64,000 bases of DNA, from NCBI GenBank assembly GCA_964634935.1, contig CAZWJT010000006.1:74189-138188 (forward strand). The letters are read 5' to 3'. This document shows, piece after piece, positions 180 to 18,456 of this stretch. Origin of the DNA: an uncultured Planctomycetia bacterium (GTDB taxonomy: Bacteria > Omnitrophota > Gorgyraeia > Duberdicusellales > Duberdicusellaceae). Below the pieces are notes generated by a model. The model was given only the letters and a program-made list of their open reading frames with translations. It ran no database searches and was not told where the DNA came from. Position 1 is the stretch's first letter. The number at the start of each line of letters is the position of its first letter. A program made the translations under genes and the position numbers.

Positions 180-3100
180 GTGTATCCGGGCACGGCACTG
201 TTTTTGTCAGGATTTATTTTCTTGCTTTGGATGCTTTGGGCTACCCATCAGCCTCACGGTCCGCCGATCTTACTGCATTCTGACCAAACAAATCTTTCTG
301 TGCATCCAAGCGGAAATTTCATTCCTTCTTCAGTCCGCTTTCGTCTTGATAACTCCTTGCAGATTACCCGTCTTTATGAATATGTGCACTCGATGCGGCA
401 TTTATCCGGAGATCTCTCAAGACTCTTAAACCATATTCGCATTGGCAGCGTTATTGTTATGAAAATTTGTGAACAACTCGCGATGAAAAGGGAAGATGCC
501 GCTCTTGTCCGTGCCGCCTTTGCGCTTCATGATCTTGGAAAGATGCAAAACCAGGAACTATGGAATATTATTCTTTCCGATAAGACATATCCCCGTAAAG
601 ATCCGGATAACCCTGAACGTAGGCTCATTAACCAACATGCAAGATTTTCAGCTGAAATGATTCATGAATTTGGGATGGAAGTTGCTCCTGAGGTTATTTC
701 TTTGGTCCGACAGCACCATACTCCGAAGGAATTAGAGGGTCGGTTGCGCGTTTATGGGGAAATCATCTATTGGGCTGATGTTGTTGATGCCATGGTGGCT
801 AAGCGTTCTTATAAGATCAATCTTGGTACAAGTGATGATTGGGTTATTGAATCCATGGACGATTTGCGTCTGACACTCCAGAAACTCAGGGATTCTAATT
901 TTTCTTCTGCCCGATGTATTCATAAAGAGATTTATACCGCGCTCTGTAGGTTTATTGAAACAGAAGCATTTGCTGCTTTATACCCTCATGTTGATCTATC
1001 AGGGAAAAAACATATTTCAGTCGGAGAATCATCATTCGCGATGATCAACAGGATAGCTCCGTATTTATTTCAAGCTGTAATGCTCTTGCGCAATTTTAAG
1101 CTTGATGGTGTTATTACGCATATTTATATAACCGGTAGTTTTGTCACTGGGGGATGCAGTATCCCTCCCGATGACATTGACTTTGCCGTGAGCATTTCAA
1201 CGAGCCATTTCCGGTATCTCCCTTATTCAAACCAAACAGAGCGCATGGTCAAGGAATTGGAAGAAATTGGTCGTCAGGCACAAGTCAGGTTTCACTTAAC
1301 GCTTGATGCTTTTGGGTATGTGGTTTACCCCGGTCAAGAACTTTCCGTGACCGGACAGATAAGGAATCAAGTACTCGTTGACGCCATGCGAGAGCGCGGA
1401 CAAGATGCGGGGGTATTAATTGATCTAACCAACGCTGATATTGTAAATGGTGATTTTTTCATAGGCCTTTACCAAAAAATTGTAAGCCGCGGTATTGCCG
1501 GTTTAGAAGCATATAAGGCGCAGAGAAAGAATATATTGTTTTCACACTGCCGGATAAATTTAGAAATTATTTTCTTGGTATTTCTTTTTTGTTTCTTCCT
1601 TTTTGCGCACGGACCGAAGTCTGACGCGCATCCGAATTTTCTTTATAGAGCAGCAGAAGAATTAAAACAGTACCAGGCAGTATTAGGGGGGATTGGTCCT
1701 GCGGTCAGTATTTTTGGATCAGCTAGAACTAAAGAACAAGACCAGCAGTTTGCCTTCGCGCAAAGTTTAGCGGAAAGGGTATCCCGGGCCGGATTTTCTG
1801 TGATTACTGGAGGTGGTCCGGGAATTATGATGGCTGCTAACAGCGGAGTTGCTTATGGTAAATTATCGGTTGGCCTGAAAATAGATTTGGCGAAAGAACA
1901 AGTGTTGAATCCATCGGTAAATGCAGTTTTATATTTCAAATACTTTTTCGCCCGCAAAATGACTTTTATCACGGCAAGCGACGCCTTTCTTTGCTGTGTT
2001 GGCGGTTTTGGAACACTCGATGAACTCTTCGAAATTCTGGCGCTAAAAGACAGAGGGTATCTTGGGGATTTTCCGGTTATCTTAACAAACCGTAAGTTTT
2101 ATGATGGACTGATGCATCTTTTGCGAAAGCTTATTTCTTATGGTTTTCTGCGCGGAAGAATCAAGAATTTACTCTTTATCGAGGATGACCCTGAAAAGAT
2201 AGCAGGTTTACTTATCGATTCCGTTTCCCGGGTAAGGAAAAGCCAGAATAATATCGATATTGGAAGAATATTAGTTGAATTTTATCGTGTATTTGTCAAG
2301 CTTGGGCAATTAGGCCCAGCTGCGGGAATCGTCGGTTCGGAATTTATTACAAGCGAAAGTAAAAATTATTACAAAGCACGGCAAATTGCTGAACGTTTAG
2401 CCTTGGCAGATATTTCTCTTATTTGGCGTGGAGGACATGGTGTGGGAGCGGCCGTCTGGGATGGTTTTCAGTCAGCACGGAAGAAAGACCGGAGTGTGAT
2501 GGCAAAGGCTGTTTCTTTATGGATCAGTGAGCGTCCGAATCGCCGCTATCGAGCAACTGGTGATGTGCGGCTTGGATTTCACTATATGTTTGAACAAAAA
2601 ATAGCATTGGTGCGCCATGCGACCAAGGGGTTTATTTTTTTCCCTGGCGGCACTGGCACACTCGACGTGCTTTTTGAAGTTCTCTGTCTTTTGCAGACAG
2701 GGAAAATACCTGCCGTGCCGGTTGTTCTGGTTGACAGGAAATTCTGGGATCCGTGGGATAGGTGGTTTCGCCATGAGCTTGTTCCTCATGAAACTATCTC
2801 CGGAAATGATTTGGATCTTTATCAGATAACCGATAGTCCCCAAGATGCAATTGAGGCTATTTCTCAGGTTCATTACAAGGCACATGCTTTTTTCTGTCCT
2901 CCTTGGTTGGCTCTTATGGTATTCATTATGGTTCTCATATGGAGCGTAGGAAGACGTACGAGTGACCCAACGCATCGGTTGCATTGCCTATTTTCGGGCA
3001 TTCCAGTTTCCAGTACTTTCTTATTGAGTATCGTCGGGGTATTGTTTTTTCTTGGAATCTTTATTGTGTTTTATCGATTCCAAATGGTTCAGTGCAAGCC

Positions 3101-6100
3101 TCGTTCTAAGTTTTTTGAAAACCGCTTTGTGAATGCTCAGGGCAGATTTTTCATTCATCGCTACGGAAAAATAATTAAAAACAAGAAAGGGTATTTTACG
3201 GAGAGTGACCGGAAAGAGCTTTTGAGCTTTCGCGCCCTCTTTGGAGATTTGCGGTCTATAAAATATAGGGCTCGGCATTGTATTGTTTCAGCGAATCAAG
3301 TCTGCGCCTTACTGAAAGGCAAGGGATTTTTCGTGACGAAACGGACAATCTATGCTTATTATGTGCACCATGCGTTCTGCTCGGTGCGTCTGGGAGGAGT
3401 TGATTTTATTCTTGATCTTACTTCCGAGCAATTCGAAGGATATTGGGAAGATTTTGCTAACCGCCCGAAGTTTCTGGGATTGGTTCTAATTCCGGCAGAT
3501 GAGGTATTTGTTCAGAGAGATAAGTTTTTCTTTTATGTTCCCCAGGCCACTGCTTACAATGGTGTGTATGTGGTTTTTGATGCAGATGATTCAGGCCTTG
3601 AACACGGATATCTTGTTGTTTCTGTAGGATCAGAGGTATTGGAAATAAGGCCGCTGGGAGATCGAGATTTTACCAAATATGCTCGGGAGGATATTGATCC
3701 ATTGGTTCGCCAGAAAGCCAAGGAACAAATTCCAACCAGTCTAGAAAATGCGCATCCCGGCTCAGAGAAAACAGCTGTTTTTTGCCTATGGTCTTTTTCT
3801 GTATTCTTGGTTTGCGCGGGTCTCCTTTTGGTATTTTTACCGGCAAAACTGTTTGAGCGCCCGGACGGTATTTGTAATTTTTCAGTACGAAATACCCCCT
3901 ATAAAGGAGCCGTCATTATTATCGGCGGTTCTTCGGGTAGCTTTGATATTATTGAGGCGATCGTAAAAAAAATACGTAGGCCGCATCCGCCCATTGTTAT
4001 TTTAAAACACTGCATCGAACCTTATATTGTTCAGGAAATGATTGAGCGGCTCTCGCTTCGCGGGAAAATCATTGAGCATAACGAAAGGATAGAGCCTTCG
4101 TTTATTTATTTTGCGGTCGAAGGGCGCCATGTAAAATTTACCGAAGATGAATTCGGGTATCGTTTCTTACTTTCTCGACGTTCACAAAGCAGGCTCGGAT
4201 TCGTTCCTTCGATCGACAAGTGTTTTTTCTCCGCCGCAGACGTTATAGGAGAAAAAGTAATCGCTCTTATTTTGAGCGGTTGGGGTAATGACGGGGCGAG
4301 CGGTGTGTTTGTTTTGCGCCAGAAAGGAGCGGTTACTATTGCCCAGCATCCGGAATGTTCGCAAAGGCCGGATATGCCGCTTCACGCAATTTCTTCCGGT
4401 GGCATTACTCATATTTTAAGTCCCTTGGCAATCCGCGATCTTCTTATGCGACAGTCAAGTTCCGGTTTATCCTCCAGCTGTTCGGTTTTTCCTCCATTCG
4501 GATTATTGGTTTTAGTGATTTTTTTCTTGCTTACTCTAGGCAGCTTCGCGCAAAGAAAAGAGAATTATTTCCGAGGTGGCACGGTTGCCCGATCAGAAAC
4601 AATCAGCGCGCGAATCAAGCTGGCAATACAGCAGCGTAGCCTTACGGTTTCTGAATTCACAAAATGCCTTCATCGCCAAATGCGGATGATGGAGCGGGAT
4701 CCAGAAACTACCCCCGAAGCCGTCAGACGTTGGCTTACTGGAGAGCATCATCCGGATATCAAAATAATTCCTGCGTTGGCCGCGACATTAAAAGTAAGTC
4801 CAAGTTGGCTTGTATGCGGTTTGTCTCAACAAGAAGCAATGCGGCAGCCAGTGCTATTGCCAAATGAACAAGAAAAATCAGGATCAAGCCTCGGGAGGCG
4901 TATATTGATTTTACGGTGGATACAAGGAATCACTTCAGTTGAGTTTGCCAAGAAAACAGGAATGAGTCTTGGTAATCTCAACAATATTGAACAGCATCTC
5001 GCAACGTACCCTCGGCCAGCATACCTAGGAAAGATGGCCCAGGTTTTGGGCGTCAGCACTTCGATAATTCTTACTGGTTTTGAGCGCAGCCAGGTAATCG
5101 ATTATTTGCGATATGCCAAAGACAGGTTTCTGTTTCTCAGGTTATGCGCCGGGATGACCCAGGATGAATTATGGGAAAGGCTTGTTGACTCCTATGGGGT
5201 AGATGTCGAAGGAAGGACTACTGTTGCGCAATGGGAGCGCGGCGTGACGCCTCAAGATCTGCGGATACGAAAAGCTCTCAGTAATCTCTACGGGATTTCT
5301 TGGGCTCGTTTAAGCGCCTATAATCCAAGAGGCAGAAGACTCAGTGAATTTATGGAATTAGAAGCGGTGGCACGGATGCGTAACTATTTTGAGAAGATCA
5401 TTGATTCGAATCTTCCAGATTCTTCTATTGTGGTGCGGTTTCCGACGATCGTAAGCGATATTATCATGGCCGATGATCTTGAGTATGATATCAACCCCGT
5501 TGTGAATATGTTATTCGATTTGGTGGCGGAGAATACCGTAGGCGGAAGGGAGATTCGCTTAAGAAAGATAACCCACGCTTTAGATTTCTATCAGAAATTA
5601 TTTCTTTTGCGACCGGGAACCTGGAGATTGCGAGACGAGCGGGCAAAATATTTTGCGAGTGTTGTTTTAAAATCTTTTGTAAACAGGGTAAATCAAGCAG
5701 GGATTGGCAGTAGAGCAACAAAGAAGATAGCCGCCCAAATATTCTGGTCTGATATTGTTGAGTCATTAAGCGGAGGCAGCGGCAATAGGTGTGCAATAAA
5801 ATTTATTGAGGTCCAAAAAGAAAATCAACCATGGTTGAGCCGGAAAGATTTGATTGCCCGCACAGGAGTTTCGCAGTCTTTGCTCAACCGGTACGGGTTT
5901 TCAAATATTGCACTACGTTTGGGTTGGTCGTTGGCTGATTCAGATTCCGATACTCAAGAGTTCTTGAACGGGGCTCAAGGGTTTCGAAGGCGGATTTTTG
6001 ATTTTTACCAGAGGCATCGGCGGTTTCCCAAGAGAGAAAAAGGAGGTTTGCGTGAATCAGATATCTGGGTGATTGAGCTTTCAAAAGCGATGCTGGGAGG

Positions 6101-7598
6101 AAGTCTTGCTATGTTTCGGCTCAGGTTCTTTGAGGATTTTTCTTCAGAGATAAAACTATTCATCAAGCATGCCCGGCCGAGCGTCCAAAAACGCATGTAT
6201 GCAGAATTACTCCGGGTTTTACCATTTGACAGGGATGCTTTAGAATTTTCTTCTGTCGATAAAACTGAGCGGGCCAAAGATGAGGTGCGGATGCGGAAGA
6301 TAATCCCTGATTATGATACAAAGGTGAAAGAATATCACTGGTATGATTGCGCTACGCTTCGAGAACGGGGCATTCAGGATTTATCGACCGCCAGTGATCT
6401 TATCGTCAGTTATGCGGATTTTGGTTCGCTCTCGTCGAAGCAGCTTGCGCGCTTGTGGTTCGAAATGCGCAGGGGTAATACCATCGCTCGCAATTTTATT
6501 ATGGACTCAAACACTGGATTGATTATTTCGTCAGCAAGAGATATCTCTGGACGTTCCATGGCGCGGAATATCAGTCAGGCGGACTTACGCAATGAAGGAT
6601 GGTTTGGATTGCGTGTTGCCGCGGAACGATTTGATCCTTCTCGAGGTACAAAATTTTCTACGTATGCAATGTGGTGGATCATGCAAGCGCAAACAAGACT
6701 ATGTCTATATGGAGGAAGAACGATACGGGCAGATCCCGCCCTCGTCAATCGTTTTTATCGGCTCCAACAGAAAATGACTGAACTCGATAACGCTCCAGAG
6801 CAGCAGAAAGGCCGCAGGACTTACGCAATTATTTATGAAAAAACCAAGCGGGAATTTGAAAAATTACGCTGGTTCTTGCAGGGAGCGTTAAACACGAAAT
6901 CGTTGAATGATTCGGTGGGCTCTGATGAGGAGGGCACTTTGTTCTCGGAATTTGTTGAAGATGTTAAATCTGAGGATCCGGAAGATGCTGCAGGGGTGTT
7001 TGATGAGCGTGAATTTGTCAGAGATTGTCTTGCTCAAATACCAGATGAAAGAGATCGGCGGATTCTTGAGCTGCGCTATGGGGTAAAACCGCCTACTTCC
7101 GCAGAGTGGCAGATACTGCAAGAAAAAAAACCAAAGCTTGAATGCAATCCTTTCACCAGTTGGCCAAAGGGACGGGATCATCTGACTTTAGAGGAGGCCG
7201 GCTTAATTTATGGTATTACCCGCGAACGCATCCGGCAGGTTGGCAACAGAGCAGAAGATGTCTTTGCTGCTATCGTTTGTGCAAACCGGCGGCGGTTTTA
7301 CACAATAAAAGATTTGTCTGAAGAAAGAAATCTTGAATGTTTCTGTCCATTGCCGACGGTCATTGTAATCATTCTTTCATTATTTCTGGCGGCACAAGGA
7401 ATGTTTTTTACGGTTACAGAAGCATCATGCCAGCAGATTGCGCCATGGTGGAACCAGCGATCCGGAATGATGCATAGGAATATACGGGGGAAGGATTGTA
7501 ACCAATTTCTCAGGCGCAATAAGAGGGGTATCAGGTTGCCAGACAAAACACTTTATGAATTTTCCCTGGTGCCTGAGCATAAGCAGAAAAATAATTGA
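180..7598 (+). CDS. Giant multidomain signalling protein (at least 2472 aa; the frame stays open back to window position 3, so the true start may lie upstream of the window). Domain order: HD-GYP-like, minimal NTase, 2x LOG/SLOG, TM cluster, unknown domain, TM, CheB-type methylesterase, TM, 3-4 HTH_XRE, sigma-70 r2-r3-r4, C-terminal TM.
   Basis: Six-frame track shows one ORF of 2472 codons. My own translation of 3..179 in the same frame finds no stop. By-eye motifs: VHSMRH...ALHDLGK...RQHHTP...ADVVDAMVAKRSYK (HD-GYP family, GYP lost). ITGSFVTGGCSIPPDDIDF (GS-x11-DxD minimal nucleotidyltransferase). SIFGSAR...ITGGGPGIMMAANSG...SDAFLCCVGGFGTLDELFE and RGGHGVGA...FFPGGTGTLDVLFEVL (two LOG / Lysine_decarbox-like Rossmann domains). 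VIIIGGSSGSFD...PIVILKHC...LSGWGNDGASG...TIAQHPECSQRPDMPLHAI (CheB methylesterase, Ser/His/Asp present). Several XRE-like helix-turn-helix segments. IARNFIMDS...FSTYAMWWIMQAQTR and ILELRYGV...LTLEEAGLIYGITRERIRQ (sigma-70 regions 2 and 4). Confidence 0.6.
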   Translation: MYPGTALFLSGFIFLLWMLWATHQPHGPPILLHSDQTNLSVHPSGNFIPSSVRFRLDNSLQITRLYEYVHSMRHLSGDLSRLLNHIRIGSVIVMKICEQLAMKREDAALVRAAFALHDLGKMQNQELWNIILSDKTYPRKDPDNPERRLINQHARFSAEMIHEFGMEVAPEVISLVRQHHTPKELEGRLRVYGEIIYWADVVDAMVAKRSYKINLGTSDDWVIESMDDLRLTLQKLRDSNFSSARCIHKEIYTALCRFIETEAFAALYPHVDLSGKKHISVGESSFAMINRIAPYLFQAVMLLRNFKLDGVITHIYITGSFVTGGCSIPPDDIDFAVSISTSHFRYLPYSNQTERMVKELEEIGRQAQVRFHLTLDAFGYVVYPGQELSVTGQIRNQVLVDAMRERGQDAGVLIDLTNADIVNGDFFIGLYQKIVSRGIAGLEAYKAQRKNILFSHCRINLEIIFLVFLFCFFLFAHGPKSDAHPNFLYRAAEELKQYQAVLGGIGPAVSIFGSARTKEQDQQFAFAQSLAERVSRAGFSVITGGGPGIMMAANSGVAYGKLSVGLKIDLAKEQVLNPSVNAVLYFKYFFARKMTFITASDAFLCCVGGFGTLDELFEILALKDRGYLGDFPVILTNRKFYDGLMHLLRKLISYGFLRGRIKNLLFIEDDPEKIAGLLIDSVSRVRKSQNNIDIGRILVEFYRVFVKLGQLGPAAGIVGSEFITSESKNYYKARQIAERLALADISLIWRGGHGVGAAVWDGFQSARKKDRSVMAKAVSLWISERPNRRYRATGDVRLGFHYMFEQKIALVRHATKGFIFFPGGTGTLDVLFEVLCLLQTGKIPAVPVVLVDRKFWDPWDRWFRHELVPHETISGNDLDLYQITDSPQDAIEAISQVHYKAHAFFCPPWLALMVFIMVLIWSVGRRTSDPTHRLHCLFSGIPVSSTFLLSIVGVLFFLGIFIVFYRFQMVQCKPRSKFFENRFVNAQGRFFIHRYGKIIKNKKGYFTESDRKELLSFRALFGDLRSIKYRARHCIVSANQVCALLKGKGFFVTKRTIYAYYVHHAFCSVRLGGVDFILDLTSEQFEGYWEDFANRPKFLGLVLIPADEVFVQRDKFFFYVPQATAYNGVYVVFDADDSGLEHGYLVVSVGSEVLEIRPLGDRDFTKYAREDIDPLVRQKAKEQIPTSLENAHPGSEKTAVFCLWSFSVFLVCAGLLLVFLPAKLFERPDGICNFSVRNTPYKGAVIIIGGSSGSFDIIEAIVKKIRRPHPPIVILKHCIEPYIVQEMIERLSLRGKIIEHNERIEPSFIYFAVEGRHVKFTEDEFGYRFLLSRRSQSRLGFVPSIDKCFFSAADVIGEKVIALILSGWGNDGASGVFVLRQKGAVTIAQHPECSQRPDMPLHAISSGGITHILSPLAIRDLLMRQSSSGLSSSCSVFPPFGLLVLVIFFLLTLGSFAQRKENYFRGGTVARSETISARIKLAIQQRSLTVSEFTKCLHRQMRMMERDPETTPEAVRRWLTGEHHPDIKIIPALAATLKVSPSWLVCGLSQQEAMRQPVLLPNEQEKSGSSLGRRILILRWIQGITSVEFAKKTGMSLGNLNNIEQHLATYPRPAYLGKMAQVLGVSTSIILTGFERSQVIDYLRYAKDRFLFLRLCAGMTQDELWERLVDSYGVDVEGRTTVAQWERGVTPQDLRIRKALSNLYGISWARLSAYNPRGRRLSEFMELEAVARMRNYFEKIIDSNLPDSSIVVRFPTIVSDIIMADDLEYDINPVVNMLFDLVAENTVGGREIRLRKITHALDFYQKLFLLRPGTWRLRDERAKYFASVVLKSFVNRVNQAGIGSRATKKIAAQIFWSDIVESLSGGSGNRCAIKFIEVQKENQPWLSRKDLIARTGVSQSLLNRYGFSNIALRLGWSLADSDSDTQEFLNGAQGFRRRIFDFYQRHRRFPKREKGGLRESDIWVIELSKAMLGGSLAMFRLRFFEDFSSEIKLFIKHARPSVQKRMYAELLRVLPFDRDALEFSSVDKTERAKDEVRMRKIIPDYDTKVKEYHWYDCATLRERGIQDLSTASDLIVSYADFGSLSSKQLARLWFEMRRGNTIARNFIMDSNTGLIISSARDISGRSMARNISQADLRNEGWFGLRVAAERFDPSRGTKFSTYAMWWIMQAQTRLCLYGGRTIRADPALVNRFYRLQQKMTELDNAPEQQKGRRTYAIIYEKTKREFEKLRWFLQGALNTKSLNDSVGSDEEGTLFSEFVEDVKSEDPEDAAGVFDEREFVRDCLAQIPDERDRRILELRYGVKPPTSAEWQILQEKKPKLECNPFTSWPKGRDHLTLEEAGLIYGITRERIRQVGNRAEDVFAAIVCANRRRFYTIKDLSEERNLECFCPLPTVIVIILSLFLAAQGMFFTVTEASCQQIAPWWNQRSGMMHRNIRGKDCNQFLRRNKRGIRLPDKTLYEFSLVPEHKQKNN
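380..810 (+). other. HD-GYP-like phosphohydrolase domain (degenerate GYP motif) inside the giant ORF
   Basis: HS..H, HDLGK, HHTP and ADVVDAMVAKRSYK line up with the conserved HD-GYP blocks HDIGK / HHE.WDGSGYP / ADVFDALTS.RPYK; the GYP tripeptide is replaced (TPKELEG). Confidence 0.55.
1110..1450 (+). other. Minimal nucleotidyltransferase (Pol-beta superfamily) domain inside the giant ORF
   Basis: ITGSFVTGGCSIPPDDIDFAV fits the hG[GS]-x9-13-DhD signature. Confidence 0.5.
1700..2760 (+). other. Two tandem LOG/SLOG (PF03641-like, TIGR00730-like) Rossmann domains inside the giant ORF
   Basis: GGGPGIMMAANSG + CVGGFGTLDELFE (copy 1, about 1700-2110) and GGHGVGAAV + FPGGTGTLDVLFEVL (copy 2, about 2415-2760). 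Confidence 0.6.
3905..4440 (+). other. CheB-type methylesterase/glutaminase-like domain, flanked by predicted TM helices, inside the giant ORF
   Basis: IGGSSGSF (cf. IGASTGGP), PIVILKH (cf. PIVIVQH), LSGWGNDGASG (cf. LTGMGRDGAAG), TIAQHPECSQRPDMPLHAI (cf. TIAQDEATCVVYGMPREAI). Hydrophobic stretches precede it (AVFCLWSFSVFLVCAGLLLVFL) and follow it (FGLLVLVIFFLLTLGSFA). Confidence 0.6.
4590..5330 (+). other. Three consecutive XRE-family helix-turn-helix modules inside the giant ORF (a fourth HTH-like segment sits near 5830-5910)
   Basis: Repeated pattern of the form L....R...G.T..E.A...G.S...L...E.G (e.g. RSLTVSEFTKCL..., ILRWIQGITSVEFAKKTGMSLGNLNNIEQ, LRLCAGMTQDELWERLVDSYGVDVEGRTTVAQWERG). 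Confidence 0.45.
6400..7260 (+). other. Sigma-70 family module (regions 2, 3 and 4) at the C-terminal part of the giant ORF
   Basis: Region 2.x: NEGWFGLRVAAERFDPSRGTKFSTYAMWWIMQAQTR (cf. FSTYATWWIRQAI). Region 4: RRILELRYGV...LTLEEAGLIYGITRERIRQVGNRA. Confidence 0.6.
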
Positions 7599-7647
7599 TC
7601 CGTGTATTTTGATATTATTTAGTGCTATATTCAAAATGTAAATTATA

Positions 7648-8436
7648 ATGGTACCAGAGAAAACAGTGGATGAGATAAAAGGTATAAACTCGAAACGGGG
7701 TTTTTTAACTACCCCGGATCAGGTAGATATTTCTTACGTTCATTACTCAAGTGGCCGGAGGAAAAAAGCGGTAGTTATTGCTCACGGTTTTTTTAATAGT
7801 AAGAATTCCCCGCTTCTGCAGGTTCTAAAAGACGCGCTTATCTCTGAGTATGATGTGATTTTGTTTGATTTTCGGGGGCATGGAGAAAGTTCGGGGCTGT
7901 TTACCTGGACTTCCCATGAGTCGCTCGATCTACGAGCGGTTTTGCAATATGCGCAGAGTCATTATTCTATCCTTGGTCTCATTGGTTTTTCTCTGGGTGC
8001 TGCAACGAGCATTAACGTGCTTGCGAAGTATGATTGTGTTCAAAGTTTTATTTCCATCAGTGCCCCTGGCAGTTTTTGGGGTATCGATTATCATTTCTGG
8101 GCTTTGAATTTTGAGAACGATCTTTTCTATACTTTTGGCAGAGAAGGAAGAGCGGGGAAAGGAGTGCGTCCTGGGCCATTCTGGCTTAGAAAAGAAAAGC
8201 CGATCAAGAATATAGAAAGTATCCATTGTCCTGTTTGTTATATTCACGGAGAAAAAGACTGGGTCATCTTACCATATCATTCCCAGAGATTATTTTCTAG
8301 AACGAAAACCCAGAAGGTATTTCACGTTATTCCTAATGGTTTTCACGCTGAGTATCTATTGCGCCAGCAGCGTGAAATAATCATAGATTCCGTATGCCGT
8401 TGGCTTACCGAAACGCTTCATGAAGGAGGTGTATGA
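7648..8436 (+). CDS. alpha/beta-fold hydrolase
   Basis: AVVIAHGFFNS...RGHGESSG...GFSLGA (nucleophile elbow GxSxG). A TATAAT sits 7 nt upstream at 7636-7641. Confidence 0.7.
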   Translation: MVPEKTVDEIKGINSKRGFLTTPDQVDISYVHYSSGRRKKAVVIAHGFFNSKNSPLLQVLKDALISEYDVILFDFRGHGESSGLFTWTSHESLDLRAVLQYAQSHYSILGLIGFSLGAATSINVLAKYDCVQSFISISAPGSFWGIDYHFWALNFENDLFYTFGREGRAGKGVRPGPFWLRKEKPIKNIESIHCPVCYIHGEKDWVILPYHSQRLFSRTKTQKVFHVIPNGFHAEYLLRQQREIIIDSVCRWLTETLHEGGV

Positions 8437-8774
8437 TGGAGGGGTTTGGAGTAGAAAAACGCATGTTTCATCGGTTTCCTTGCGCTATGGGCAGTGTGTC
8501 CGTACGTAACCTGCAGCGTGATTTCGAAAGCAGCGGTCGATGTGTTGATCTTTCTGCTGGCGGGATCAGCTTTGAAACTGAGAAGGTTTTTTTCCCGGGT
8601 GATCCTGTCGAAATCTGGATGGATTTAAAGAACAACCTTTCCTCTTTCCAGCAGGGCGGGAAAGTAGTTTGGGCAAAGCGTATGTATCCTGAAAAATTCC
8701 GGATTGGTATTGAGTTTCAGGAACCCCAACTTACCAAGATTCATCAATTGGTTGAAGGTATTTGTAACTCGTAA
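8433..8774 (+). CDS. PilZ-domain protein (c-di-GMP receptor family)
   Basis: RMFHRFP ... DLSAGGISFE resembles the PilZ RxxxR ... D/NxSxxG motifs. Its ATGATGG start overlaps the upstream stop (translational coupling). Confidence 0.55.
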   Translation: MMEGFGVEKRMFHRFPCAMGSVSVRNLQRDFESSGRCVDLSAGGISFETEKVFFPGDPVEIWMDLKNNLSSFQQGGKVVWAKRMYPEKFRIGIEFQEPQLTKIHQLVEGICNS

Positions 8775-8791
8775 TCTGAAATATTAAGTTA

Positions 8792-8819
8792 TTGAATTAA
8801 ATAATACTTATGGTATAAT
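8792..8819 (+). promoter_or_regulatory. Sigma-70-like promoter TTGAAT-16-TATAAT upstream of the ABC transporter operon
   Basis: ttgaat(8792-8797) ... tataat(8814-8819), followed by AAGGAGG and ATG 8872. Confidence 0.4.
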
Positions 8820-8871
8820 TTCCACCATATTGTCTACCCTCTAATAGCCATCTAGCATGAAGGAGGACGGG

Positions 8872-10167
8872 ATGAGAAATATCTTCTCTGTGGCGGTAAG
8901 TTGTATAATTTTACTGTGCGGATGTTCATCGGAACAACCCTCCCAAAAATCCTCAGCTCGAGAAATAACAGTATGGTATTGGATGGTTGATCGTAAGCAG
9001 GCCTTTGAGGAATTAGCCAAGAAATATGAACAGGAAACCTCAGTCAAGGTCAATTTTAAACTGTTTTCTTCAGATATCTATGCGCAAAAAGTCATTGCTG
9101 CCGCCCGGGCAGGAAGTCTTCCGGAAATTTTCGGCATTCTTGGTGAAAAGAAGATGCTCGCCTCTTTTATCAAAGCCAACCATATTTTAGATTTAACGCC
9201 CTATATGCTGAAGGATTCTTCGGCGTGGAAGAAACGTTTCTATCCTCAAGTTTTAGGGCAGAATTCTTTTGAGAAAAATAATATATACGAAGTGCAGGAA
9301 GGAATTTATGGCGTGCCGATAGATATGATGAATATTCAATTTCTCTACAATCGGGAATTGTTTCAAAAGGCGGGGCTTAACCCGAATCAGCCTCCGGTTA
9401 CTTTTGAAGATTTCATTCAGTATGCTCGTTTGGTGAAGGAGAAGACAGGGGCAAAAGGGTTTGCGTGCGGTTGGGGAGAAGTCTGGCTTATGTCATGTGT
9501 TTTTTCTGAATGGGCGATGAATCTCCTCGGAGAAGATATTTTTCATAAAACGATTCAAGGAAAAATACCGTATACGAGCCCTCAATGGATTGAAGTATTT
9601 AGTCTTTTTGACAGACTGCGCCAAGAAGATGTGCTTCTGCCTAATATTGTAAGCACTATTAATAAAGAAGCTGAGCAGTATTTTGCTGACGGGAAATCCG
9701 CGTTTTCATTTGACGGCAGCTGGTGTATTAACATCTATCAGGAGTTAAATCCCAAGCTTTCCTACGGAGCGTTCCCTTTGCCGATCGTATCAACAAAATT
9801 TCCAATAAGGATCTGGGGCGGTGCTGGCAGTTCTTTTATGGTAAGTGCCATAAGTCCTCAAAAAGAAGAAGCGGTGCTGTTTCTTGCATGGCTGACAAAA
9901 CCAGAACAGCAAAAATATCTTATCCAATCTACCCGGAATCTTCCGGCGATTCAGGGATGCGAAGATACTTTTTCTGAGGCAATGAAGGAATTTGCCAATG
10001 ATGCCGATAAAATCACCCATCCTAATATCTGGCCGAAACAGGAAGATTCCCGGGTAACCGAGGTGATTATTAAGGGGTTGCAGCAGATTGTGATGGGCAT
10101 CACCACCCCGGAAAAAGTCGCTGAAGAAGTCCAGAAAGCAAAGGAGCGGATTGAGAAACAGCAATGA
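8872..10167 (+). CDS. ABC transporter substrate-binding lipoprotein (sugar family)
   Basis: Lipobox LLCGCSS after a hydrophobic N-terminus; size about 430 aa; followed by two MalF/MalG-like permeases; RBS AGGAGG before ATG 8872 (the ORF track starts at an earlier ATG, 8857). Confidence 0.8.
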   Translation: MRNIFSVAVSCIILLCGCSSEQPSQKSSAREITVWYWMVDRKQAFEELAKKYEQETSVKVNFKLFSSDIYAQKVIAAARAGSLPEIFGILGEKKMLASFIKANHILDLTPYMLKDSSAWKKRFYPQVLGQNSFEKNNIYEVQEGIYGVPIDMMNIQFLYNRELFQKAGLNPNQPPVTFEDFIQYARLVKEKTGAKGFACGWGEVWLMSCVFSEWAMNLLGEDIFHKTIQGKIPYTSPQWIEVFSLFDRLRQEDVLLPNIVSTINKEAEQYFADGKSAFSFDGSWCINIYQELNPKLSYGAFPLPIVSTKFPIRIWGGAGSSFMVSAISPQKEEAVLFLAWLTKPEQQKYLIQSTRNLPAIQGCEDTFSEAMKEFANDADKITHPNIWPKQEDSRVTEVIIKGLQQIVMGITTPEKVAEEVQKAKERIEKQQ

Positions 10168-11051
10168 GAAAAGACCTGCTTAAGGAAACAACGATAAGCT
10201 ATTCCTTTATCTTCCCCGCGGTATTTTTGTTCACTATTTTCTATATCTACCCGCTTTTCTATACGCTTTGGCTGAGTTTGCACCGGGGGGATGCTATTTC
10301 GTATATGAAGTTTGTTGGTCTTGCAAATTTTCAGGAAATACTTTTCCAAGACAAAGACTGGTGGCGTTCGATTTATAATGCAGGATTTATTACATTTTGG
10401 GCATTAACATTCCAGAATATCCTTGCGTTTGTTTTGGCGCTCGGCGTCGATAAGGCAATACGTCTGGGTAAACTTTACCGGGTTGTTTTTTTTATTCTGC
10501 CAATTCTTTCTGAGATTATCATCGGGCTTCTGATGCGTGAGATTCTTTTGTCTGAGCCGGGCATTTTCAATAAGCTTCTGTCAAACGTTGGGCTAGGTTT
10601 TGTTATCCGCGATTGGCTTAGTTCAGGAAATGTTCTGCTTACTACAGCTCTTGTGCATTGTTGGAAAGGATTTGGCTGGGCATTTGTGATTTTTCTCGCA
10701 GGTTTACAATCAATCCCCGCACAGCTCTATGAGGCAGCTCGAGTTGATGGAGCAAACGCTTGGCAAAGTTTTCTGAAGGTGACCTTGCCGCTTATGATTC
10801 CGGTAACTGCTATGGTTTTTGTTTTGACTATCCTTGGTACTATGCAGGCATTTGCCATGATTCTTGCTTTAACCCGAGGCGCAGGAGGTCTCACTGAGGT
10901 TCCGGTTATGCGCATCTACAACCATCTAAAAGACGGACAAGTCGGGTTTGCATGTGCTGAAGGGGTTATCCTTGGGGCACTCCTTGTTTTTGTTTCGTTC
11001 GTGATGTTCAAATTCTCGAAAGCGGTGCGAGAAAAGTATGGTGTATTATAA
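10164..11051 (+). CDS. ABC transporter permease (MalF-like, sugar)
   Basis: Six-TM profile; EAA-like loop AARVDGANAWQSFLKVTLP. Confidence 0.85.
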   Translation: MRKDLLKETTISYSFIFPAVFLFTIFYIYPLFYTLWLSLHRGDAISYMKFVGLANFQEILFQDKDWWRSIYNAGFITFWALTFQNILAFVLALGVDKAIRLGKLYRVVFFILPILSEIIIGLLMREILLSEPGIFNKLLSNVGLGFVIRDWLSSGNVLLTTALVHCWKGFGWAFVIFLAGLQSIPAQLYEAARVDGANAWQSFLKVTLPLMIPVTAMVFVLTILGTMQAFAMILALTRGAGGLTEVPVMRIYNHLKDGQVGFACAEGVILGALLVFVSFVMFKFSKAVREKYGVL

Positions 11052-11877
11052 GGCAAAAAAAATAGCATTACTTGTCATTATTCATACATTTCTTTTGAGT
11101 GTGGCTTTAAGCTGCGTCTATCCGCTTGTCTGGATGATTAATGCATCGTTCAAAACCGAACATGAATTTCGGCAAGATCAAGGTCTTTCTTTTGCTCAGG
11201 GTTTCAATCTTTCCAACTATGGAACTGCGTTGCGCGAAGGGAATCTCGGGATCAATTTTCTCAATAGCGTTTTTTATACATTTATAACTGTTACTTCCAT
11301 TGTATTTGTTTCTGCTCTTGCAGCATACGCATTCTCGCGTCTTAAATTTCCCGGGAAAAATATTCTTTTCGGAATGTTCCTTGCGGCAATGATGATACCA
11401 CTACCTGCCGGGTTTGTTCCAGTCTATATTTTGCTCAACAAGCTTCATCTTGTAAATAGAATTGGGTATGTTTTTGCAATGGTCAATATGGGGCTTTCCT
11501 TAAGTATCTATCTTTTGAAGACTTTTTTTGACCAGCTTCCTTCGGCGCTTGAAGATGCTGCCAGGATTGACGGATGCGGACATTTTGGGGTCTGGTGGCA
11601 TGTTGCTTTGCCGCTTGTCCGGCCAGCGTTAGCAGTAGTGGTTATTTTTAATGCGCTCACAGTTTGGAACGAATTTGTGCTTGCCTCGCTTATGTTTAAT
11701 AGTGAAACGCTCATGCCGCTTCAGGTTGGTTTGATGGAATTCTATAATCGGAATGTTATCCAGCATACATTACTTATGGCTTCGCTCACGATCGGGGCTG
11801 TTCCGATAATCCTTGTATATCTGAAGATGCAGAAACAGATTATCAAGGGTATTACCCAGGGAGCTTTGGTAGGATGA
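11038..11877 (+). CDS. ABC transporter permease (MalG-like, sugar)
   Basis: EAA loop DAARIDGCGHFGVWWHVALPLVRP; overlaps the upstream permease. Confidence 0.85.
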   Translation: MVYYKAKKIALLVIIHTFLLSVALSCVYPLVWMINASFKTEHEFRQDQGLSFAQGFNLSNYGTALREGNLGINFLNSVFYTFITVTSIVFVSALAAYAFSRLKFPGKNILFGMFLAAMMIPLPAGFVPVYILLNKLHLVNRIGYVFAMVNMGLSLSIYLLKTFFDQLPSALEDAARIDGCGHFGVWWHVALPLVRPALAVVVIFNALTVWNEFVLASLMFNSETLMPLQVGLMEFYNRNVIQHTLLMASLTIGAVPIILVYLKMQKQIIKGITQGALVG

Positions 11878-14162
11878 AGGAACTTTTTTCTTTAATACAT
11901 TGTCTAAGAAGTAGAATGATAAAGCAATGCGTGTTTATTGTGGCTTGTTTTCTGGTGTTTTTACCAGCGCTTCTTGCTCAGTCTGATTCTTCGGAATATC
12001 TTACAAAAGCTTGGGAAGCGCTGGGAAAGCGTAATTTTGAAGAAGTTGCACAGTTGACTGCGCGCTGTGCCCAAGAATTTGGCCCTCAGGCTGATTTGCT
12101 TGCGCAAGGTATGACGAAAATACCTGAGCAGGAGGAATCAAAATACAAGGTATTGAATGATGTCGCAGTGTGCTATTTTGTTCAAGGCGAGTCTTTAATG
12201 CGCCAAGGGAAAATTGAAGAGGCAAAGGAGGTTTTTCGAACACTTATCGGGAAATACCCCTATGCATCTGGTTGGGATCCGCGCGGTTGGTTCTGGTCAG
12301 TAAAGGAGAAGGCGGAGATCACTCTCACTAAACTCGAGAAAGGCGTGATTGAAGAGGACAATATTGAGAAAAATATTGTTATCACGCAGATTACCCTTGC
12401 TGATCCGGGAGCTTCACTGCCAATTGAATATGAGAAATTTGGTCAATTCAAAGGGGTTGGGACAAAAGACTATGAGTTTATGGTTACTGATATGGAGGGT
12501 TTAGTGAAGGCTGCGGGGGAAGGCGTTTATCCAAACTCGACCTCGGTACGCTATGATCCAGAGTTTGTGCGGATGAAAAATAACAAGGAATTGCAAGCAA
12601 AGCATTGGGATATTTTGAATGGCAGGGATTTGAAGAAAGCGTTCTATATTTGGAATATTTGCGGAGAGCCAGCGGGCATTAAACAGTTTTATATCGGAGA
12701 TCTTCTTGAACGGAGTGGTCTTATCGAACAAGCAGTCAAAGCGTACTATGCCTGTCTTGTATTTTTTCCTCGCACCTACGGTTGGACATATTGGCATACA
12801 CCGTGGTATATAGCTGAAGCAGCTCTTGCCCGTATTGAGTATCTATTAAGTACTTTCCCGCATCTTGGTTTAAGACTTGAAGGGGCTTCGGTAAAGATTG
12901 TAAACGGTTTTGACTACGATGTTTCAAACGATGTTTTTGTTATTAATCCTGGTAAGATTGTGCGAAGCGAATCTTTGAATTCTGATATTCGTAAGAAGCT
13001 GGGAGCTGTTCAGAAGAGCGTTGGTACAACGGTGCGTCTTGTACAGTATGAATCAGGCGATTGGCAGCTTTTTGTCCACGATAAACCGTTTATTGTTAAA
13101 GGCATTACATATGCTCCGACAAGGGTAGGAGAGAGCCCGGATGAGGGTACTCTTGCGAATTGGACAGAGCAGGACACAAATAAAAACGGACTTATTGATG
13201 GTCCATTTGATACCTGGGTTGACAAAGATTATAATGGAAAGCAGGATCCTGGCGAGGAAATACAAGGTGATTTTAAGTTACTCAAAGATATGGGGGTCAA
13301 TGCATTACGGGTATACCATCAACCAGCAGAGCCTAATAAAAAACTTTTTAAAACTCTTTACGAAAATTATGGTATAATGGTTATTATGGCTGATTTCCTC
13401 GGAAAATATGCGATTGGAAGTGGTGCTTCTTGGTCCGAAGGAACAAACTATTCCGACTTAAAACATCAAGAAAATATGTTGAGTTCTGTTCGAAAAATGG
13501 TTCTTGAGTACAAAGATGAGCCCTATATTCTTTTTTGGTTGCTCGGGAATGAAAATGTTTATGGGGTTGCCTGTAACGCGAACAAAGATCCGGAGAGCTT
13601 CTTTAAATTTGCGAACAAGGCAGCGCAACTGATTAAAGAGCTTGACCCTACGCGTCCGGTGGCAATTGCCAGCGGTGATGTTTTGTATCTTGATATTTTT
13701 GGGAAACACGCACCCGATATTGATATTTTTGGTACGAATGCTTATCGGGGTAAATATGGTTTTGGTTTCATCTGGGATCAGGTAAAAGAATTTGCCAATA
13801 AGCCGTGCTTGATTACTGAATATGGTGCTCCAGCCTATGGAGAGGGTTATTCCGCTCAAGAAGCTGAAGATTTCCAGGCGGAATATCACCGTGCTAATTG
13901 GGCTCATATTATGCGCAATTCTTGTTGTCAAGGAGCGGGAAACGCCTTAGGAGGGATTGTTTTCGAGTGGCTTGATGAATGGTGGAAGGCTTATGAGCCG
14001 GCATACCATGACAGAAAAGGTCTTTTTACCGGGCCATTCTTAGATGGTTTTATGCACGAAGAGTGGCTTGGGCTTGTTTCTCAGGGTGATGGAAAAAATT
14101 CCCCGTTTTTAAGAAAATTAAGAAAAGCATATTTCACCTACCAGAATATCTGGAAAAACTGA
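11874..14162 (+). CDS. Secreted TPR-containing protein with C-terminal clan GH-A-like TIM-barrel glycosidase domain
   Basis: Signal peptide; KGITYAP...NALRVYH...LLGNENVYG...ITEYGAPAYGE...FEWLDEWWK; paralogous to the 15480..16706 product. Confidence 0.6.
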   Translation: MKELFSLIHCLRSRMIKQCVFIVACFLVFLPALLAQSDSSEYLTKAWEALGKRNFEEVAQLTARCAQEFGPQADLLAQGMTKIPEQEESKYKVLNDVAVCYFVQGESLMRQGKIEEAKEVFRTLIGKYPYASGWDPRGWFWSVKEKAEITLTKLEKGVIEEDNIEKNIVITQITLADPGASLPIEYEKFGQFKGVGTKDYEFMVTDMEGLVKAAGEGVYPNSTSVRYDPEFVRMKNNKELQAKHWDILNGRDLKKAFYIWNICGEPAGIKQFYIGDLLERSGLIEQAVKAYYACLVFFPRTYGWTYWHTPWYIAEAALARIEYLLSTFPHLGLRLEGASVKIVNGFDYDVSNDVFVINPGKIVRSESLNSDIRKKLGAVQKSVGTTVRLVQYESGDWQLFVHDKPFIVKGITYAPTRVGESPDEGTLANWTEQDTNKNGLIDGPFDTWVDKDYNGKQDPGEEIQGDFKLLKDMGVNALRVYHQPAEPNKKLFKTLYENYGIMVIMADFLGKYAIGSGASWSEGTNYSDLKHQENMLSSVRKMVLEYKDEPYILFWLLGNENVYGVACNANKDPESFFKFANKAAQLIKELDPTRPVAIASGDVLYLDIFGKHAPDIDIFGTNAYRGKYGFGFIWDQVKEFANKPCLITEYGAPAYGEGYSAQEAEDFQAEYHRANWAHIMRNSCCQGAGNALGGIVFEWLDEWWKAYEPAYHDRKGLFTGPFLDGFMHEEWLGLVSQGDGKNSPFLRKLRKAYFTYQNIWKN

Positions 14163-14233
14163 ATGCCAAGATATTGATTGCGAAAGAGGAAGAGTTGTTA
14201 CGCAGAATACATAGGCAAAAAGAAGGGGGTAGT

Positions 14234-15406
14234 ATGAGAAAAATAATTTCATTGAGTCTGGTTTTGTTCTTGTGCAGTATCGGGTCGCTTTTTGCTCAGG
14301 CAGTAAGCCCAGAAGGCGCACAAGATGTAAAGAAGTTCGATGTGTACACGGATAAGGCTTCGCCATCGAACCATTACGCTCCAAGCGGATGGATGGGTGA
14401 TGTGGGCGATCTTTCTCTTGATGATCAGAATATGGAAAGTCCTTATTCTGGTTCTACCGCAATCAAAATCACCTATTCGGCAAAAAGAGTTCAAAGCAAA
14501 GGTTGGGCAGGAATCTACTGGCAGAATCCGGCGAACAACTGGGGTAACCGCAAAGGCGGTTTTGATTTAACCGGATACAATAAACTTATTTTCATGGCCA
14601 AAGGTGCCCAAGGCGGAGAGGTGCTTTCTAAGGTGAAAGTTGGCGGTATTGGAGCAACGGGCGATGTTCCTTATCCTGATTCAGCAGAGAAAGAGTCAGG
14701 ACCGATCCAGCTCACCAATGAGTGGAAAGAGTATGTCGTGAATCTCACCGACAAAGACCTTTCTTATATCAGCGGGGGATTTGCTGTTATTTTTGAGGCC
14801 GACCAGAATCAAGCAGGCGCAGAAATATTTTTAGACGATGTTGCCTTTGTATTTGACCCGGACTTAAAAGCTGAAAAGAATGAGATTTCCTTTCCTTTCT
14901 ATATTTATTCAGACGGAGGGTCTTTGGATAACCATTTCATTCCTTCCGGATGGATGCCGGCCACAGCAGCACAAGACATCAAGTTTAACCAATACGAGAA
15001 GACCGCTCCTTACTCTGGAACGAGCGCCATCCGTATTGATTACAAAGATGTTTCTGGTACTCGCTGGGCAGGAATCTACTGGCAGAATCCCGCAGAAAAC
15101 TGGGGCGCCAAAGATGGGGGCATTAATCTTACCGGAGCAACAAAGCTTACTTTCTGGGCTCGCGGAGAAAAGGGCGGAGAAAGAATAGAAGAAGTCAAGG
15201 TAGGCGGTATTATGGGGCAGTATTCTGACTCAGATTCCGCTGGCATTGGTCCAGTTGTGCTCACGAAAGAGTGGAAACAATATACGATTGATTTACGCGG
15301 CAAAGATTTAAATTCAATCATCGGTGGTTTCTGTTGGGCGACAAATACCGACGTAAATCCTGAAGGAGCGACATTCTATTTTGACGAAATAAAATACGAG
15401 AAATAA
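14234..15406 (+). CDS. Secreted protein with two tandem about 165-aa carbohydrate-binding-module-like repeats
   Basis: Signal peptide MRKIISLSLVLFLCSIGSLFAQA. Internal duplication: SPYSGSTAIKITYS...WAGIYWQNPANNWG...KVGGIG versus APYSGTSAIRIDYK...WAGIYWQNPAENWG...KVGGIMG. Confidence 0.7.
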   Translation: MRKIISLSLVLFLCSIGSLFAQAVSPEGAQDVKKFDVYTDKASPSNHYAPSGWMGDVGDLSLDDQNMESPYSGSTAIKITYSAKRVQSKGWAGIYWQNPANNWGNRKGGFDLTGYNKLIFMAKGAQGGEVLSKVKVGGIGATGDVPYPDSAEKESGPIQLTNEWKEYVVNLTDKDLSYISGGFAVIFEADQNQAGAEIFLDDVAFVFDPDLKAEKNEISFPFYIYSDGGSLDNHFIPSGWMPATAAQDIKFNQYEKTAPYSGTSAIRIDYKDVSGTRWAGIYWQNPAENWGAKDGGINLTGATKLTFWARGEKGGERIEEVKVGGIMGQYSDSDSAGIGPVVLTKEWKQYTIDLRGKDLNSIIGGFCWATNTDVNPEGATFYFDEIKYEK

Positions 15407-15412
15407 TAAACG

Positions 15413-15460
15413 GAAGGCCCTCGGTAGAAGCTTTTTCTACCGGGGGCCTTTTCTCTGTTT
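15413..15460 (+). terminator. Rho-independent terminator
   Basis: GGCCCTCGGTAGAAgctttTTCTACCGGGGGCC hairpin followed by TTTTCTCTGTTT. Confidence 0.65.
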
Positions 15461-15479
15461 ATGCATAAACTATAAGTGT

Positions 15480-18336: not shown

Positions 18337-18427
18337 GCTTTTCGAAGAACCCGATAGATACCTTCCCGACGCGAACTGATTTCTAGATTGCCCAGAAAAA
18401 ATTTCTACAACTATTTCCAAAAATGTA

Positions 18428-18456
18428 TTGCAATTGAAAATTATCTTTGCTAAAAT
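18428..18456 (+). promoter_or_regulatory. Sigma-70-like promoter TTGCAA-17-TAAAAT
   Basis: Lies in the 140-bp AT-rich gap ahead of ATG 18478. Confidence 0.4.

Follow-up and report, generated by a model that had tools for sequence, protein, structure and literature searches.

Members of the Omnitrophota encode long proteins in which numerous unrelated Pfam domains, often of a cytoplasmic type, are lined up (methyltransferases, NUDIX, glycolytic enzymes, 'HD-domain regulators'), with about one transmembrane (TM) helix per 370 residues; proteolytic processing of these chains is suspected, though unproven (bioRxiv 10.64898/2026.06.07.730766; bioRxiv 10.1101/2023.11.21.568195). The helix-punctuated organisation has been described in 176 complete nanopore genomes (Nielsen & Lui 2026, bioRxiv 10.64898/2026.06.07.730766). 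The same two preprints propose a predatory or episymbiotic life for Omnitrophota and predict their long proteins to be exposed at the surface for the most part. We analysed a stretch of 64,000 nucleotides (contig CAZWJT010000006.1, positions 74,189–138,188; referred to as the window), which contains an open reading frame (ORF) of 2,472 codons at nt 180–7598 of the plus strand. Its segment nt 380–2760 had been described as a second-messenger-like cassette, consisting of an HD-GYP-like eraser, a minimal nucleotidyltransferase (NTase) writer and two LOG-type readers. In our judgement, this segment probably comprises the two N-terminal soluble blocks of a multi-enzyme ORF of mosaic structure, punctuated by membrane-type helices, which is a short and regulator-rich variant of the Omnitrophota type. 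Its four nucleotide domains have the appearance of modules shuffled independently of one another rather than of a circuit dedicated to a second messenger.

The ORF is free of stop codons throughout (translation table 11) and contains all modules described below; residue i corresponds to nt 180 + 3(i − 1). As the original prediction had stated, the HD domain, the NTase and two LOG domains follow one another in a single chain. A homologue search with residues 1–500 against 1.84 billion representative proteins gave 39 hits. About 20 of these match the HD module (residues 56–277) and the other 20 or so the NTase (residues 280–445). The two sets are disjoint: no other protein among the 1.84 billion representatives carries both the HD clade and the NTase clade. 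Each of the two modules also occurs as a stand-alone protein of 180–310 residues, and inside mosaic proteins of 5,163, 4,367, 4,246, 3,700, 3,012, 2,403, 2,156 and 2,044 residues. Numerous hits are mosaic ORFs of 2–5 kAA (thousand amino acids), among them P0002, P0008, P0009, P0022, P0024, P0028 and P0036. Methyltransferases, kinases, GNATs and ParB-like, YcaO-like and poly(A)-polymerase-like modules are also found in the long mosaic relatives.

Within long ORFs the neighbour of the LOG tandem varies; it is the HD-NTase pair (window), a HATPase-like module (P0047) or the N-terminus of the protein (P0022 and P0036). The latter two proteins, which represent one lineage, combine LOG-LOG and NTase as the window does, in another order and spacing and with the HD module absent; an HTH (helix-turn-helix) array is present in P0022 only. 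The closest relative of LOG-LOG (46% identity) is annotated as Candidatus Omnitrophica and has a different module beside the tandem. Since each block is found elsewhere, either as a stand-alone protein or reordered in other long ORFs, the modules are probably functionally autonomous.

Genomes scanned with the HD alignment yielded a second ORF with helix-punctuated organisation, in a metagenome-assembled genome (MAG) labelled Planctomycetales (L001; CAZRVK010000003.1, 34092–54712). Its 20,621 nt form one frame of at least 6,873 codons which runs off both ends. The HD module is directly followed by a hydrophobic helix, and there are about 14 such helices at a spacing of 350–800 residues. Further modules are a phosphotransacetylase (PTA), a methyltransferase and a cytidine deaminase.

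In the window, seven helix-like hydrophobic segments are distributed over the 2,472 residues (one per 353), as called by Kyte–Doolittle hydropathy with a 19-residue mean and not by DeepTMHMM. All of them lie between blocks and none inside a domain. Helix 1 is N-terminal and signal-anchor-like (residues 1–22, nt 180–245, mean hydropathy 1.77); such a segment is also found in many homologous long proteins. Helix 2, where the coding score dips, separates HD-NTase from LOG-LOG (residues 459–477, nt 1554–1610, mean hydropathy 2.31). Helices 3 and 4 (residues 903–921 and 946–964, nt 2886–3071) enclose a basic loop. They are followed on the same strand by helix 5 (residues 1200–1218, nt 3777–3833), helix 6 (residues 1436–1454, nt 4485–4541) and helix 7 (residues 2387–2405, nt 7338–7394), after which a tail of 67 residues remains. 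Spaced at about 350 residues, the helices would anchor the blocks in the membrane and form the junctions between them, and cleavage of the chain may take place at the helices or close by.

Several patterns at the junctions bear on such a cut. At every one of the six internal helices, a Cys lies between positions −12 and +4 relative to the start of the helix (20% expected for each, post hoc P ≈ 7e-5), that is in residues 447–463, 891–907, 934–950, 1188–1204, 1424–1440 and 2375–2391 (FFCPPW, VFCLW, SCSVFPPF, CFCPLP and others); in L001, the Cys-plus-helix pattern is not significant. A small-x-small motif ends four of the seven helices (AHG, SVG, SFA, AQG). In relatives without internal helices, short lineage-specific motifs sit at the module boundaries. 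P0008 (4,367 residues) has 12 copies of the RFSE-like motif [RS]F[AST]E, as against 0.3 expected, and those at positions 2374 and 2620 enclose its HD module. In P0025 (1,950 residues), SSPV is present five times (0.03 expected) and also forms the last residues of the protein; it lies on the flanks of the NTase module of P0012, P0019, P0025 and P0034. Repeated copies of AARP and ATASP are found in P0003 and P0009. As sequence patterns, both the junction motifs and the helix features are compatible with candidate processing sites.

The HD module (residues 56–277, nt 345–1010, plus strand) belongs to a clade of the HD-GYP family. Residues 90–205 match Pfam HD (PF01966; E = 1.7e-10, 41.6 bits against a cut-off of 22), and HD_5 (PF13487) scores 14.5 bits, below its gathering cut-off of 27.2. 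In an alignment of 11 clade sequences, H85, H117-D118, G120, K121, H153, H179-H180, D203, R209 and Y211 are invariant, and the metal ligands are all intact. The assignment to an HD-GYP type that has lost GYP, made originally from the stretch HHTPKELEG, could be extended: the clade consensus is HHxPExI and HHExxDGxGYP occurs in none of the 11 members, so that the loss is a property of the whole clade. The clade profile matched the solved HD-GYP enzymes V-cGAP3 (5z7c, 1.8e-12), PmGH (4mcw, 4.1e-12) and 9rbz (5e-6), as compared with only 0.078 for the window module as a single sequence. The module is 58% identical to one within the 5,163-residue protein P0002.

With the HD-GYP phosphodiesterases (PmGH 4mcw, V-cGAP3 5z7c, PA4781 4r8z) the module shares the H..HD..H..HH..D set of metal ligands and the signatures HDxGK and ADxxDA(x)xxxR(x)Y. 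Unlike these enzymes, the clade lacks not only GYP but also the Glu after HH, and it has a specific N-terminal extension of about 35 residues (LYxxV..R.L.GD) as well as a C-terminal helical extension; a receiver domain is absent from the window module. From its family membership we infer a metal-dependent phosphodiesterase of the HD-GYP type, the substrate of which may be a cyclic or a linear nucleotide.

The NTase (residues 280–445, nt 1017–1514, plus strand) is a minimal one, as predicted, and resembles the MNT and ANT enzymes. Its scores against curated Pfam families are all below threshold (DUF6932, 25.9 bits against a cut-off of 27; NTP_transf_2, 14.6 against 21; Polbeta, 13.5 against 26.9), whereas some of its homologues pass the threshold of NTP_transf_2. 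These homologues, about 20 in the library of 1.84 billion proteins, were found with E values of 4e-20 to 1e-4. The window sequence ITGSFVTGGCSIPPDDIDFAV contains the NTase motif hG[GS]x9–13Dh[DE]h, and an alignment of 16 sequences shows G319-S320, G324 and D332-x-D334 to be invariant. Of the acidic triad named in the prediction, DxD is thus intact, together with GS, and the third position (model strand 96–100) is His372 in the window instead of Asp or Glu. Most members also have His in this column, others E, D or N.

AlphaFold2 gave a confident model from the 16-sequence alignment (predicted local distance difference test, pLDDT, 88; predicted template modelling score, pTM, 0.85), while single-sequence prediction of HD plus NTase was unusable (pLDDT 36). 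The nearest folds are MNT and aminoglycoside adenylyltransferases, not cGAS/DncV-like nucleotidyltransferases (CD-NTases). Neither the two-lobed cGAS/DncV-like fold of about 300 residues nor a GGDEF domain, by which a messenger synthase would be recognised, was found in the NTase. The Pfam hits of the ORF do not include the HEPN family, the cognate partner of MNT in toxin–antitoxin pairs. The GS...DxD arrangement and small size are shared with MNT of the HEPN-MNT pairs (8xeh, 1no5, 5yep) and with the adenylyltransferases AAD(9) (6sxj), LinB (3jyy) and ANT(4') (4ebj). Unlike these, the window NTase has neither a recognisable HEPN partner nor a substrate-binding C-domain. It has extra beta-strands and a long N-terminal helix, His is the third ligand in most members of its clade, and the module is set within long ORFs. 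Judged by the model, the enzyme is of the minimal type which adenylylates proteins or small molecules, and no recognisable messenger synthase. It would transfer a nucleoside monophosphate onto a protein or small molecule, and no cyclic messenger would be made.

The duplication of the LOG domain was borne out by matches to TIGR00730 for the first copy and to Lysine_decarbox for the second; the proposal that both are sensor-type SLOG readers was not. LOG1 (residues c. 496–690, nt 1665–2249, plus strand) is a type-II LOG enzyme with intact catalytic motifs (GGGPGIM, ARK, GGFGTLDE). Residues 509–675 score 167.3 bits against the TIGR00730 cut-off of 96.35, and the type-II LOG protein 5wq3 in the PDB is matched with 1e-46. 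LOG2 (residues c. 700–897, nt 2277–2870, plus strand) is a degenerate copy or pseudo-enzyme (RGGHGVG, EQK, PGGTGTLDV), of which residues c. 785–893 match Lysine_decarbox with E = 8e-21. Neither the Gly-rich phosphate loop nor the catalytic Arg and Glu are retained, a loss common to P0022 and P0036. Each copy matches its respective counterpart in P0022, P0036 and P0047, LOG2 being orthologous to their second copies.

Tandems of an active and an inactive LOG domain also exist as stand-alone proteins of about 450 residues, the second copy of which keeps the Gly loop and Arg and has Gln in place of the catalytic Glu. The neighbours of their genes encode IMP dehydrogenase (IMPDH) and tRNA-guanine transglycosylase, or phosphoribosyltransferase and transketolase. 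This setting is one of nucleotide (purine) metabolism, not a defence or signalling island. The tandem is an old unit. At a further locus (L009, 1–7824; GCA_053996315.1, JBMXYS010000037.1), a gene for a LOG-LOG protein of 607 residues overlaps a gene for 12,086 residues, its start lying 16 nt upstream of the end of the latter. This overlap of frames suggests a movement of modules between long ORFs and genes of their own.

All motifs of LOG1 are shared with the type-II LOG enzymes of Corynebacterium glutamicum (5wq3) and Thermus thermophilus (TT1465, 1wek) and with the LOG-like nucleosidase PpnN, and identity to canonical TIGR00730 proteins is about 45%. Unlike these enzymes, LOG1 is fused to an inactive copy and has hydrophobic helices on both flanks of the tandem. 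As a member of this family, it is predicted to cleave nucleoside 5'-monophosphates to the base and ribose-5-phosphate, and the inactive LOG2 may pair with it to form an intramolecular pseudo-dimer.

Some points weigh against the interpretation as a mosaic of shuffled modules of the Omnitrophota type. All four modules of the segment act on nucleotides, which could mean a functional theme and not a random assortment. Single helices would put modules dependent on nucleoside triphosphates, DNA and RNA polymerase on alternating sides of the membrane. The count of Lys and Arg residues around the helices assigns the C-terminus of block 1 (HD-NTase), the loop that joins helix 3 to helix 4 and the block with the sigma factor described below to the cytoplasm and LOG-LOG to the outside, and is in conflict at helix 6. 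In view of such conflicting topologies, it may be that at least some of the helices do not cross the membrane, or that the chain undergoes processing; the same difficulty has been noted for Omnitrophota long proteins in the preprint literature. With 2,472 residues, the ORF is below the definition of that class (at least 10,000 residues), the members of which (10–147 kAA) are 4–60 times longer. The connection to Omnitrophota was made through the annotation of the LOG-LOG relative only, and the nearest genomic relative of the HD module (L001) is labelled Planctomycetales. Finally, a metagenome scan with residues 40–940 found no close relatives or orthologue with which the linkers could be compared; a second metagenome scan recovered only the P0003 contig and one weak match.

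Downstream of the LOG tandem, the chain continues with regulatory modules and blocks without a recognisable family. Block 3 (residues 965–1199, nt 3072–3776, plus strand) has no match in Pfam, PHROGs or PDB sequences. A papain- or transglutaminase-like protease, considered for this block on account of a C...HH...D pattern, found no support in the same three resources. Between helices 5 and 6 lies a CheB-type methylesterase without receiver domain (residues 1246–1420, nt 3915–4439, plus strand; PF01339, 2e-29), in which the Ser/His/Asp motifs GGSSGS, LKHC and GNDGA look kept by eye. An array of XRE-type HTH domains follows (residues c. 1490–1700, nt 4647–5279, plus strand; HTH_3 in two stretches with 6e-14, HTH_31), similar to that of P0022. 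The next 375 residues or so (c. 1710–2085, nt 5310–6440) have no Pfam or PHROGs match. They are followed by a sigma-70 module with regions 2–4 (residues c. 2089–2358, nt 6444–7253, plus strand; RpoD_Cterm with 1.7e-31, Sigma70_r2 and Sigma70_r4). This complete RpoD-like sigma-70 is bracketed by the hydrophobic helices 6 and 7 (nt 4485–7394, residues 1436–2405). A membrane-bracketed primary-type sigma factor within a mosaic ORF is unusual.

The ORF might also be an exported effector polyprotein, an explanation which we regard as unlikely. The chain or its pieces would be delivered to a host, to prey or to the surface, and the nucleotide modules would manipulate or scavenge the nucleotide pool of the target. 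Such a chain would be comparable to the polyvalent proteins and MARTX toxins discussed below. Homologous long proteins often have a signal-anchor-like segment at their start and a series of cytoplasm-type enzymes, and the junction motifs recur in the manner of protease sites; in the ORF, however, searches that included Pfam and PADLOC detected neither a protease nor a toxin domain, nor one related to secretion. The proposed predatory or episymbiotic life of Omnitrophota and the predicted surface exposure of their long proteins would suit such a role, as would the charge count at helices 2 and 3, which would place LOG-LOG on the outer face. The locus, however, belongs to the core chromosome and not to a mobile or secretion-system island: genes for ribosomal proteins L25, S6, S18 and L9, single-stranded DNA-binding protein (SSB), DnaB, BamA, LpxD, LpxC, LpxA and LpxI and elongation factor G (EF-G) are nearby. 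Sigma-70, the XRE HTHs and CheB are self-regulatory modules without obvious use as effectors. A scan of viral contigs with the HD alignment retrieved no relatives, which speaks against an origin from a phage polyvalent protein.

We doubt still more strongly that the segment is one second-messenger circuit, in which the NTase writes, the GYP-less HD module erases and the LOG domains, especially LOG2, sense, with the output perhaps through CheB, HTH, sigma or PilZ. The segments did fall into the families predicted, and catalytic residues are intact in HD, in the NTase (GS, DxD) and in LOG1. While the nearest solved relatives of the HD module are phosphodiesterases for cyclic GMP-AMP (cGAMP) and cyclic di-GMP (c-di-GMP), the putative writer is MNT/ANT-like and neither a CD-NTase nor a GGDEF protein, and among the 1.84 billion representatives no other protein combines the eraser and writer clades. 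As a conserved pseudo-enzyme, LOG2 could bind a ligand without cleaving it; it lacks, however, the Gly-rich phosphate loop and the catalytic residues, LOG1 scores above the cut-off of an enzyme family, and stand-alone tandems occur in housekeeping purine contexts. LOG-LOG and NTase meet again in P0022 and P0036, but these are a single lineage without HD. The four nucleotide-handling modules are consecutive, with regulatory modules later in the same chain; a hydrophobic helix (residues 459–477) nevertheless lies between HD-NTase and LOG-LOG, and CheB, XRE HTHs and sigma-70 continue the beads-on-a-string format typical of combinatorial mosaic long proteins. No significant PADLOC match was obtained for the segment (E values of at least 7e-4 over HD, NTase and LOG); the only hit from the sigma region was MzaA (7e-12).

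The PilZ gene, cited originally as lying 1 kb downstream, does exist (nt 8436–8774, plus strand). It encodes a canonical protein of 112 residues with RxxxR and DxSxxG motifs, and PF07238 was matched on the identical gene of an independent Logan assembly. The distance is 0.84 kb from the stop codon of the ORF, which would suit the proposed circuit, and 5.7 kb from nt 2760. Its start abuts an alpha/beta-hydrolase gene (nt 7648–8436). We rejected the assignment of PilZ to the ORF, since it is a separate gene. PilZ is a neighbour of the ORF. Those parts of the window in which the Pfam content was checked showed neither a GGDEF nor an EAL gene.

There is, we believe, slight probability that the ORF is a true bacterial polyprotein, that is an operon written as one frame, with the helices serving as internal signal-anchor and cleavage elements. 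Cleavage would then free separately localised enzymes and a membrane-tethered sigma-70, and the HD-NTase and LOG-LOG blocks would be made stoichiometrically with the transcription factor. If so, processing would be a general strategy of gene expression in Omnitrophota-like bacteria. Promoter and terminator scans revealed no enrichment in the linkers, and a search of the ORF region for direct and inverted repeats found no junction repeat at the DNA level. Shine–Dalgarno sequences are barely used in this genome and so give no guide to internal starts.

The integrity of the frame itself was examined in several ways. By base composition, a frame of 2,472 open codons cannot be of chance origin at 43% GC. 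An in-frame codon-usage score, trained on neighbouring genes, is positive over every domain block and close to zero only at the hydrophobic linkers, as expected of hydrophobic segments. A contig of an independent Logan assembly (run SRR12133403) is 99.97% identical over nt 2920–18436 of the window. It contains the 3' 1,558 codons (4.7 kb) of the ORF uninterrupted and called as one gene, and the sole difference within the ORF is a synonymous single-nucleotide polymorphism (SNP). This second assembly covers the ORF from nt 2920, and the 5' 2.7 kb, which hold most of the HD, NTase and LOG segment, are represented by a single assembly. In a collection of 15 billion proteins the exact product of 2,472 residues is absent (11 alternative starts were tried, and non-ATG starts may fail at the first residue); five of the neighbouring proteins that were checked are present. 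Word-indexed protein searches gave one weak CheB match for the whole ORF and none for HD plus NTase.

It is very improbable that an error of assembly or sequencing, or the loss of stop codons in a decayed locus, has merged adjacent genes: the missing database entry, the low linker scores and the signal-anchor-like segment that opens each block, as it does separate genes of the family, would agree with a merger, but at least six in-frame junctions, stop-free over 7.4 kb, cannot come from error, the second assembly reads through the 3' 4.7 kb, and the same helix-punctuated organisation is found in the unrelated MAG with L001 and in the 176 nanopore genomes.

The remaining window contains ordinary bacterial genes for proteins of 150–977 residues on the plus strand. 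Genes for PurH, 2-oxoacid:ferredoxin oxidoreductase and HisG are also near the locus, and the organism seems to be anaerobic and diderm. A gene for an LpxC-FabZ fusion (nt 47679–48992) belongs to a lipid A cluster (LpxD, LpxC-FabZ, LpxA, LpxI) adjoining BamA and OmpH, which indicates a diderm envelope. Two ORFs of 977 residues (nt 18478–21411) and 410 residues (nt 14174–15406), both without Pfam match, lie among genes for glycoside hydrolases and ABC sugar transporters. A search of the window with Rfam identified tRNA-Gln only, outside the ORF region.

Should the interpretation as a modular mosaic be true, adjacency of domains in such ORFs could not be taken for a functional cassette, and caution would be advisable in guilt-by-association annotation of Omnitrophota and the PVC (Planctomycetes–Verrucomicrobia–Chlamydiae) bacteria. 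The analysis also defines three uncharacterised module families with stand-alone relatives suited to biochemical work, namely the GYP-less HD-GYP clade, the MNT-like NTase clade and the tandem of active and inactive LOG domains.

Among described systems, the nucleotide-centric conflict and signalling systems (of the CBASS, that is cyclic-oligonucleotide-based anti-phage signalling, or SMODS-SLOG type), reportedly catalogued by Burroughs et al. in 2015, draw on the same superfamilies as the segment: pol-beta NTases, HD domains and SLOG/LOG Rossmann domains. Unlike them, the segment has no CD-NTase-type synthase, effector, conserved co-occurrence or defence-island context, and its LOG domain is of the enzyme clade. 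In phages and conjugative elements, polyvalent proteins string autonomous enzymatic modules combinatorially in a giant chain, as do MARTX toxins. The window ORF shares the combinatorial chain, and some of its relatives have recurrent junction motifs; unlike those proteins, it is encoded in the core chromosome and has hydrophobic helices as junctions, and neither a processing protease nor a delivery apparatus was identified.

The resemblance extends furthest to the class 1 multi-enzyme long proteins of Omnitrophota (Nielsen & Lui 2026) and the Archaeovorin-type giants (West-Roberts et al. 2023). Pfam tiling without a dominant repeat, the N-terminal signal or anchor, HD-domain and regulatory modules, and unique sequences within a recurrent architecture are common to all, and the helix density is alike (one per 353 residues in the ORF by Kyte–Doolittle, as compared with about one per 370). 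HEAT, glycosyltransferase, SecA and peptidase modules of the long proteins were not detected in the window ORF. With its 2.5 kAA, the ORF is experimentally tractable, unlike proteins of this architecture with 10–150 kAA, and it bears on helix insertion, on cleavage at the junctions and on whether a sigma factor can work from within a chain. It differs from the Omnitrophota long proteins in having a complete sigma-70 with regions 2–4, XRE HTHs and CheB, and in that each of its helices lies exactly at a block boundary.

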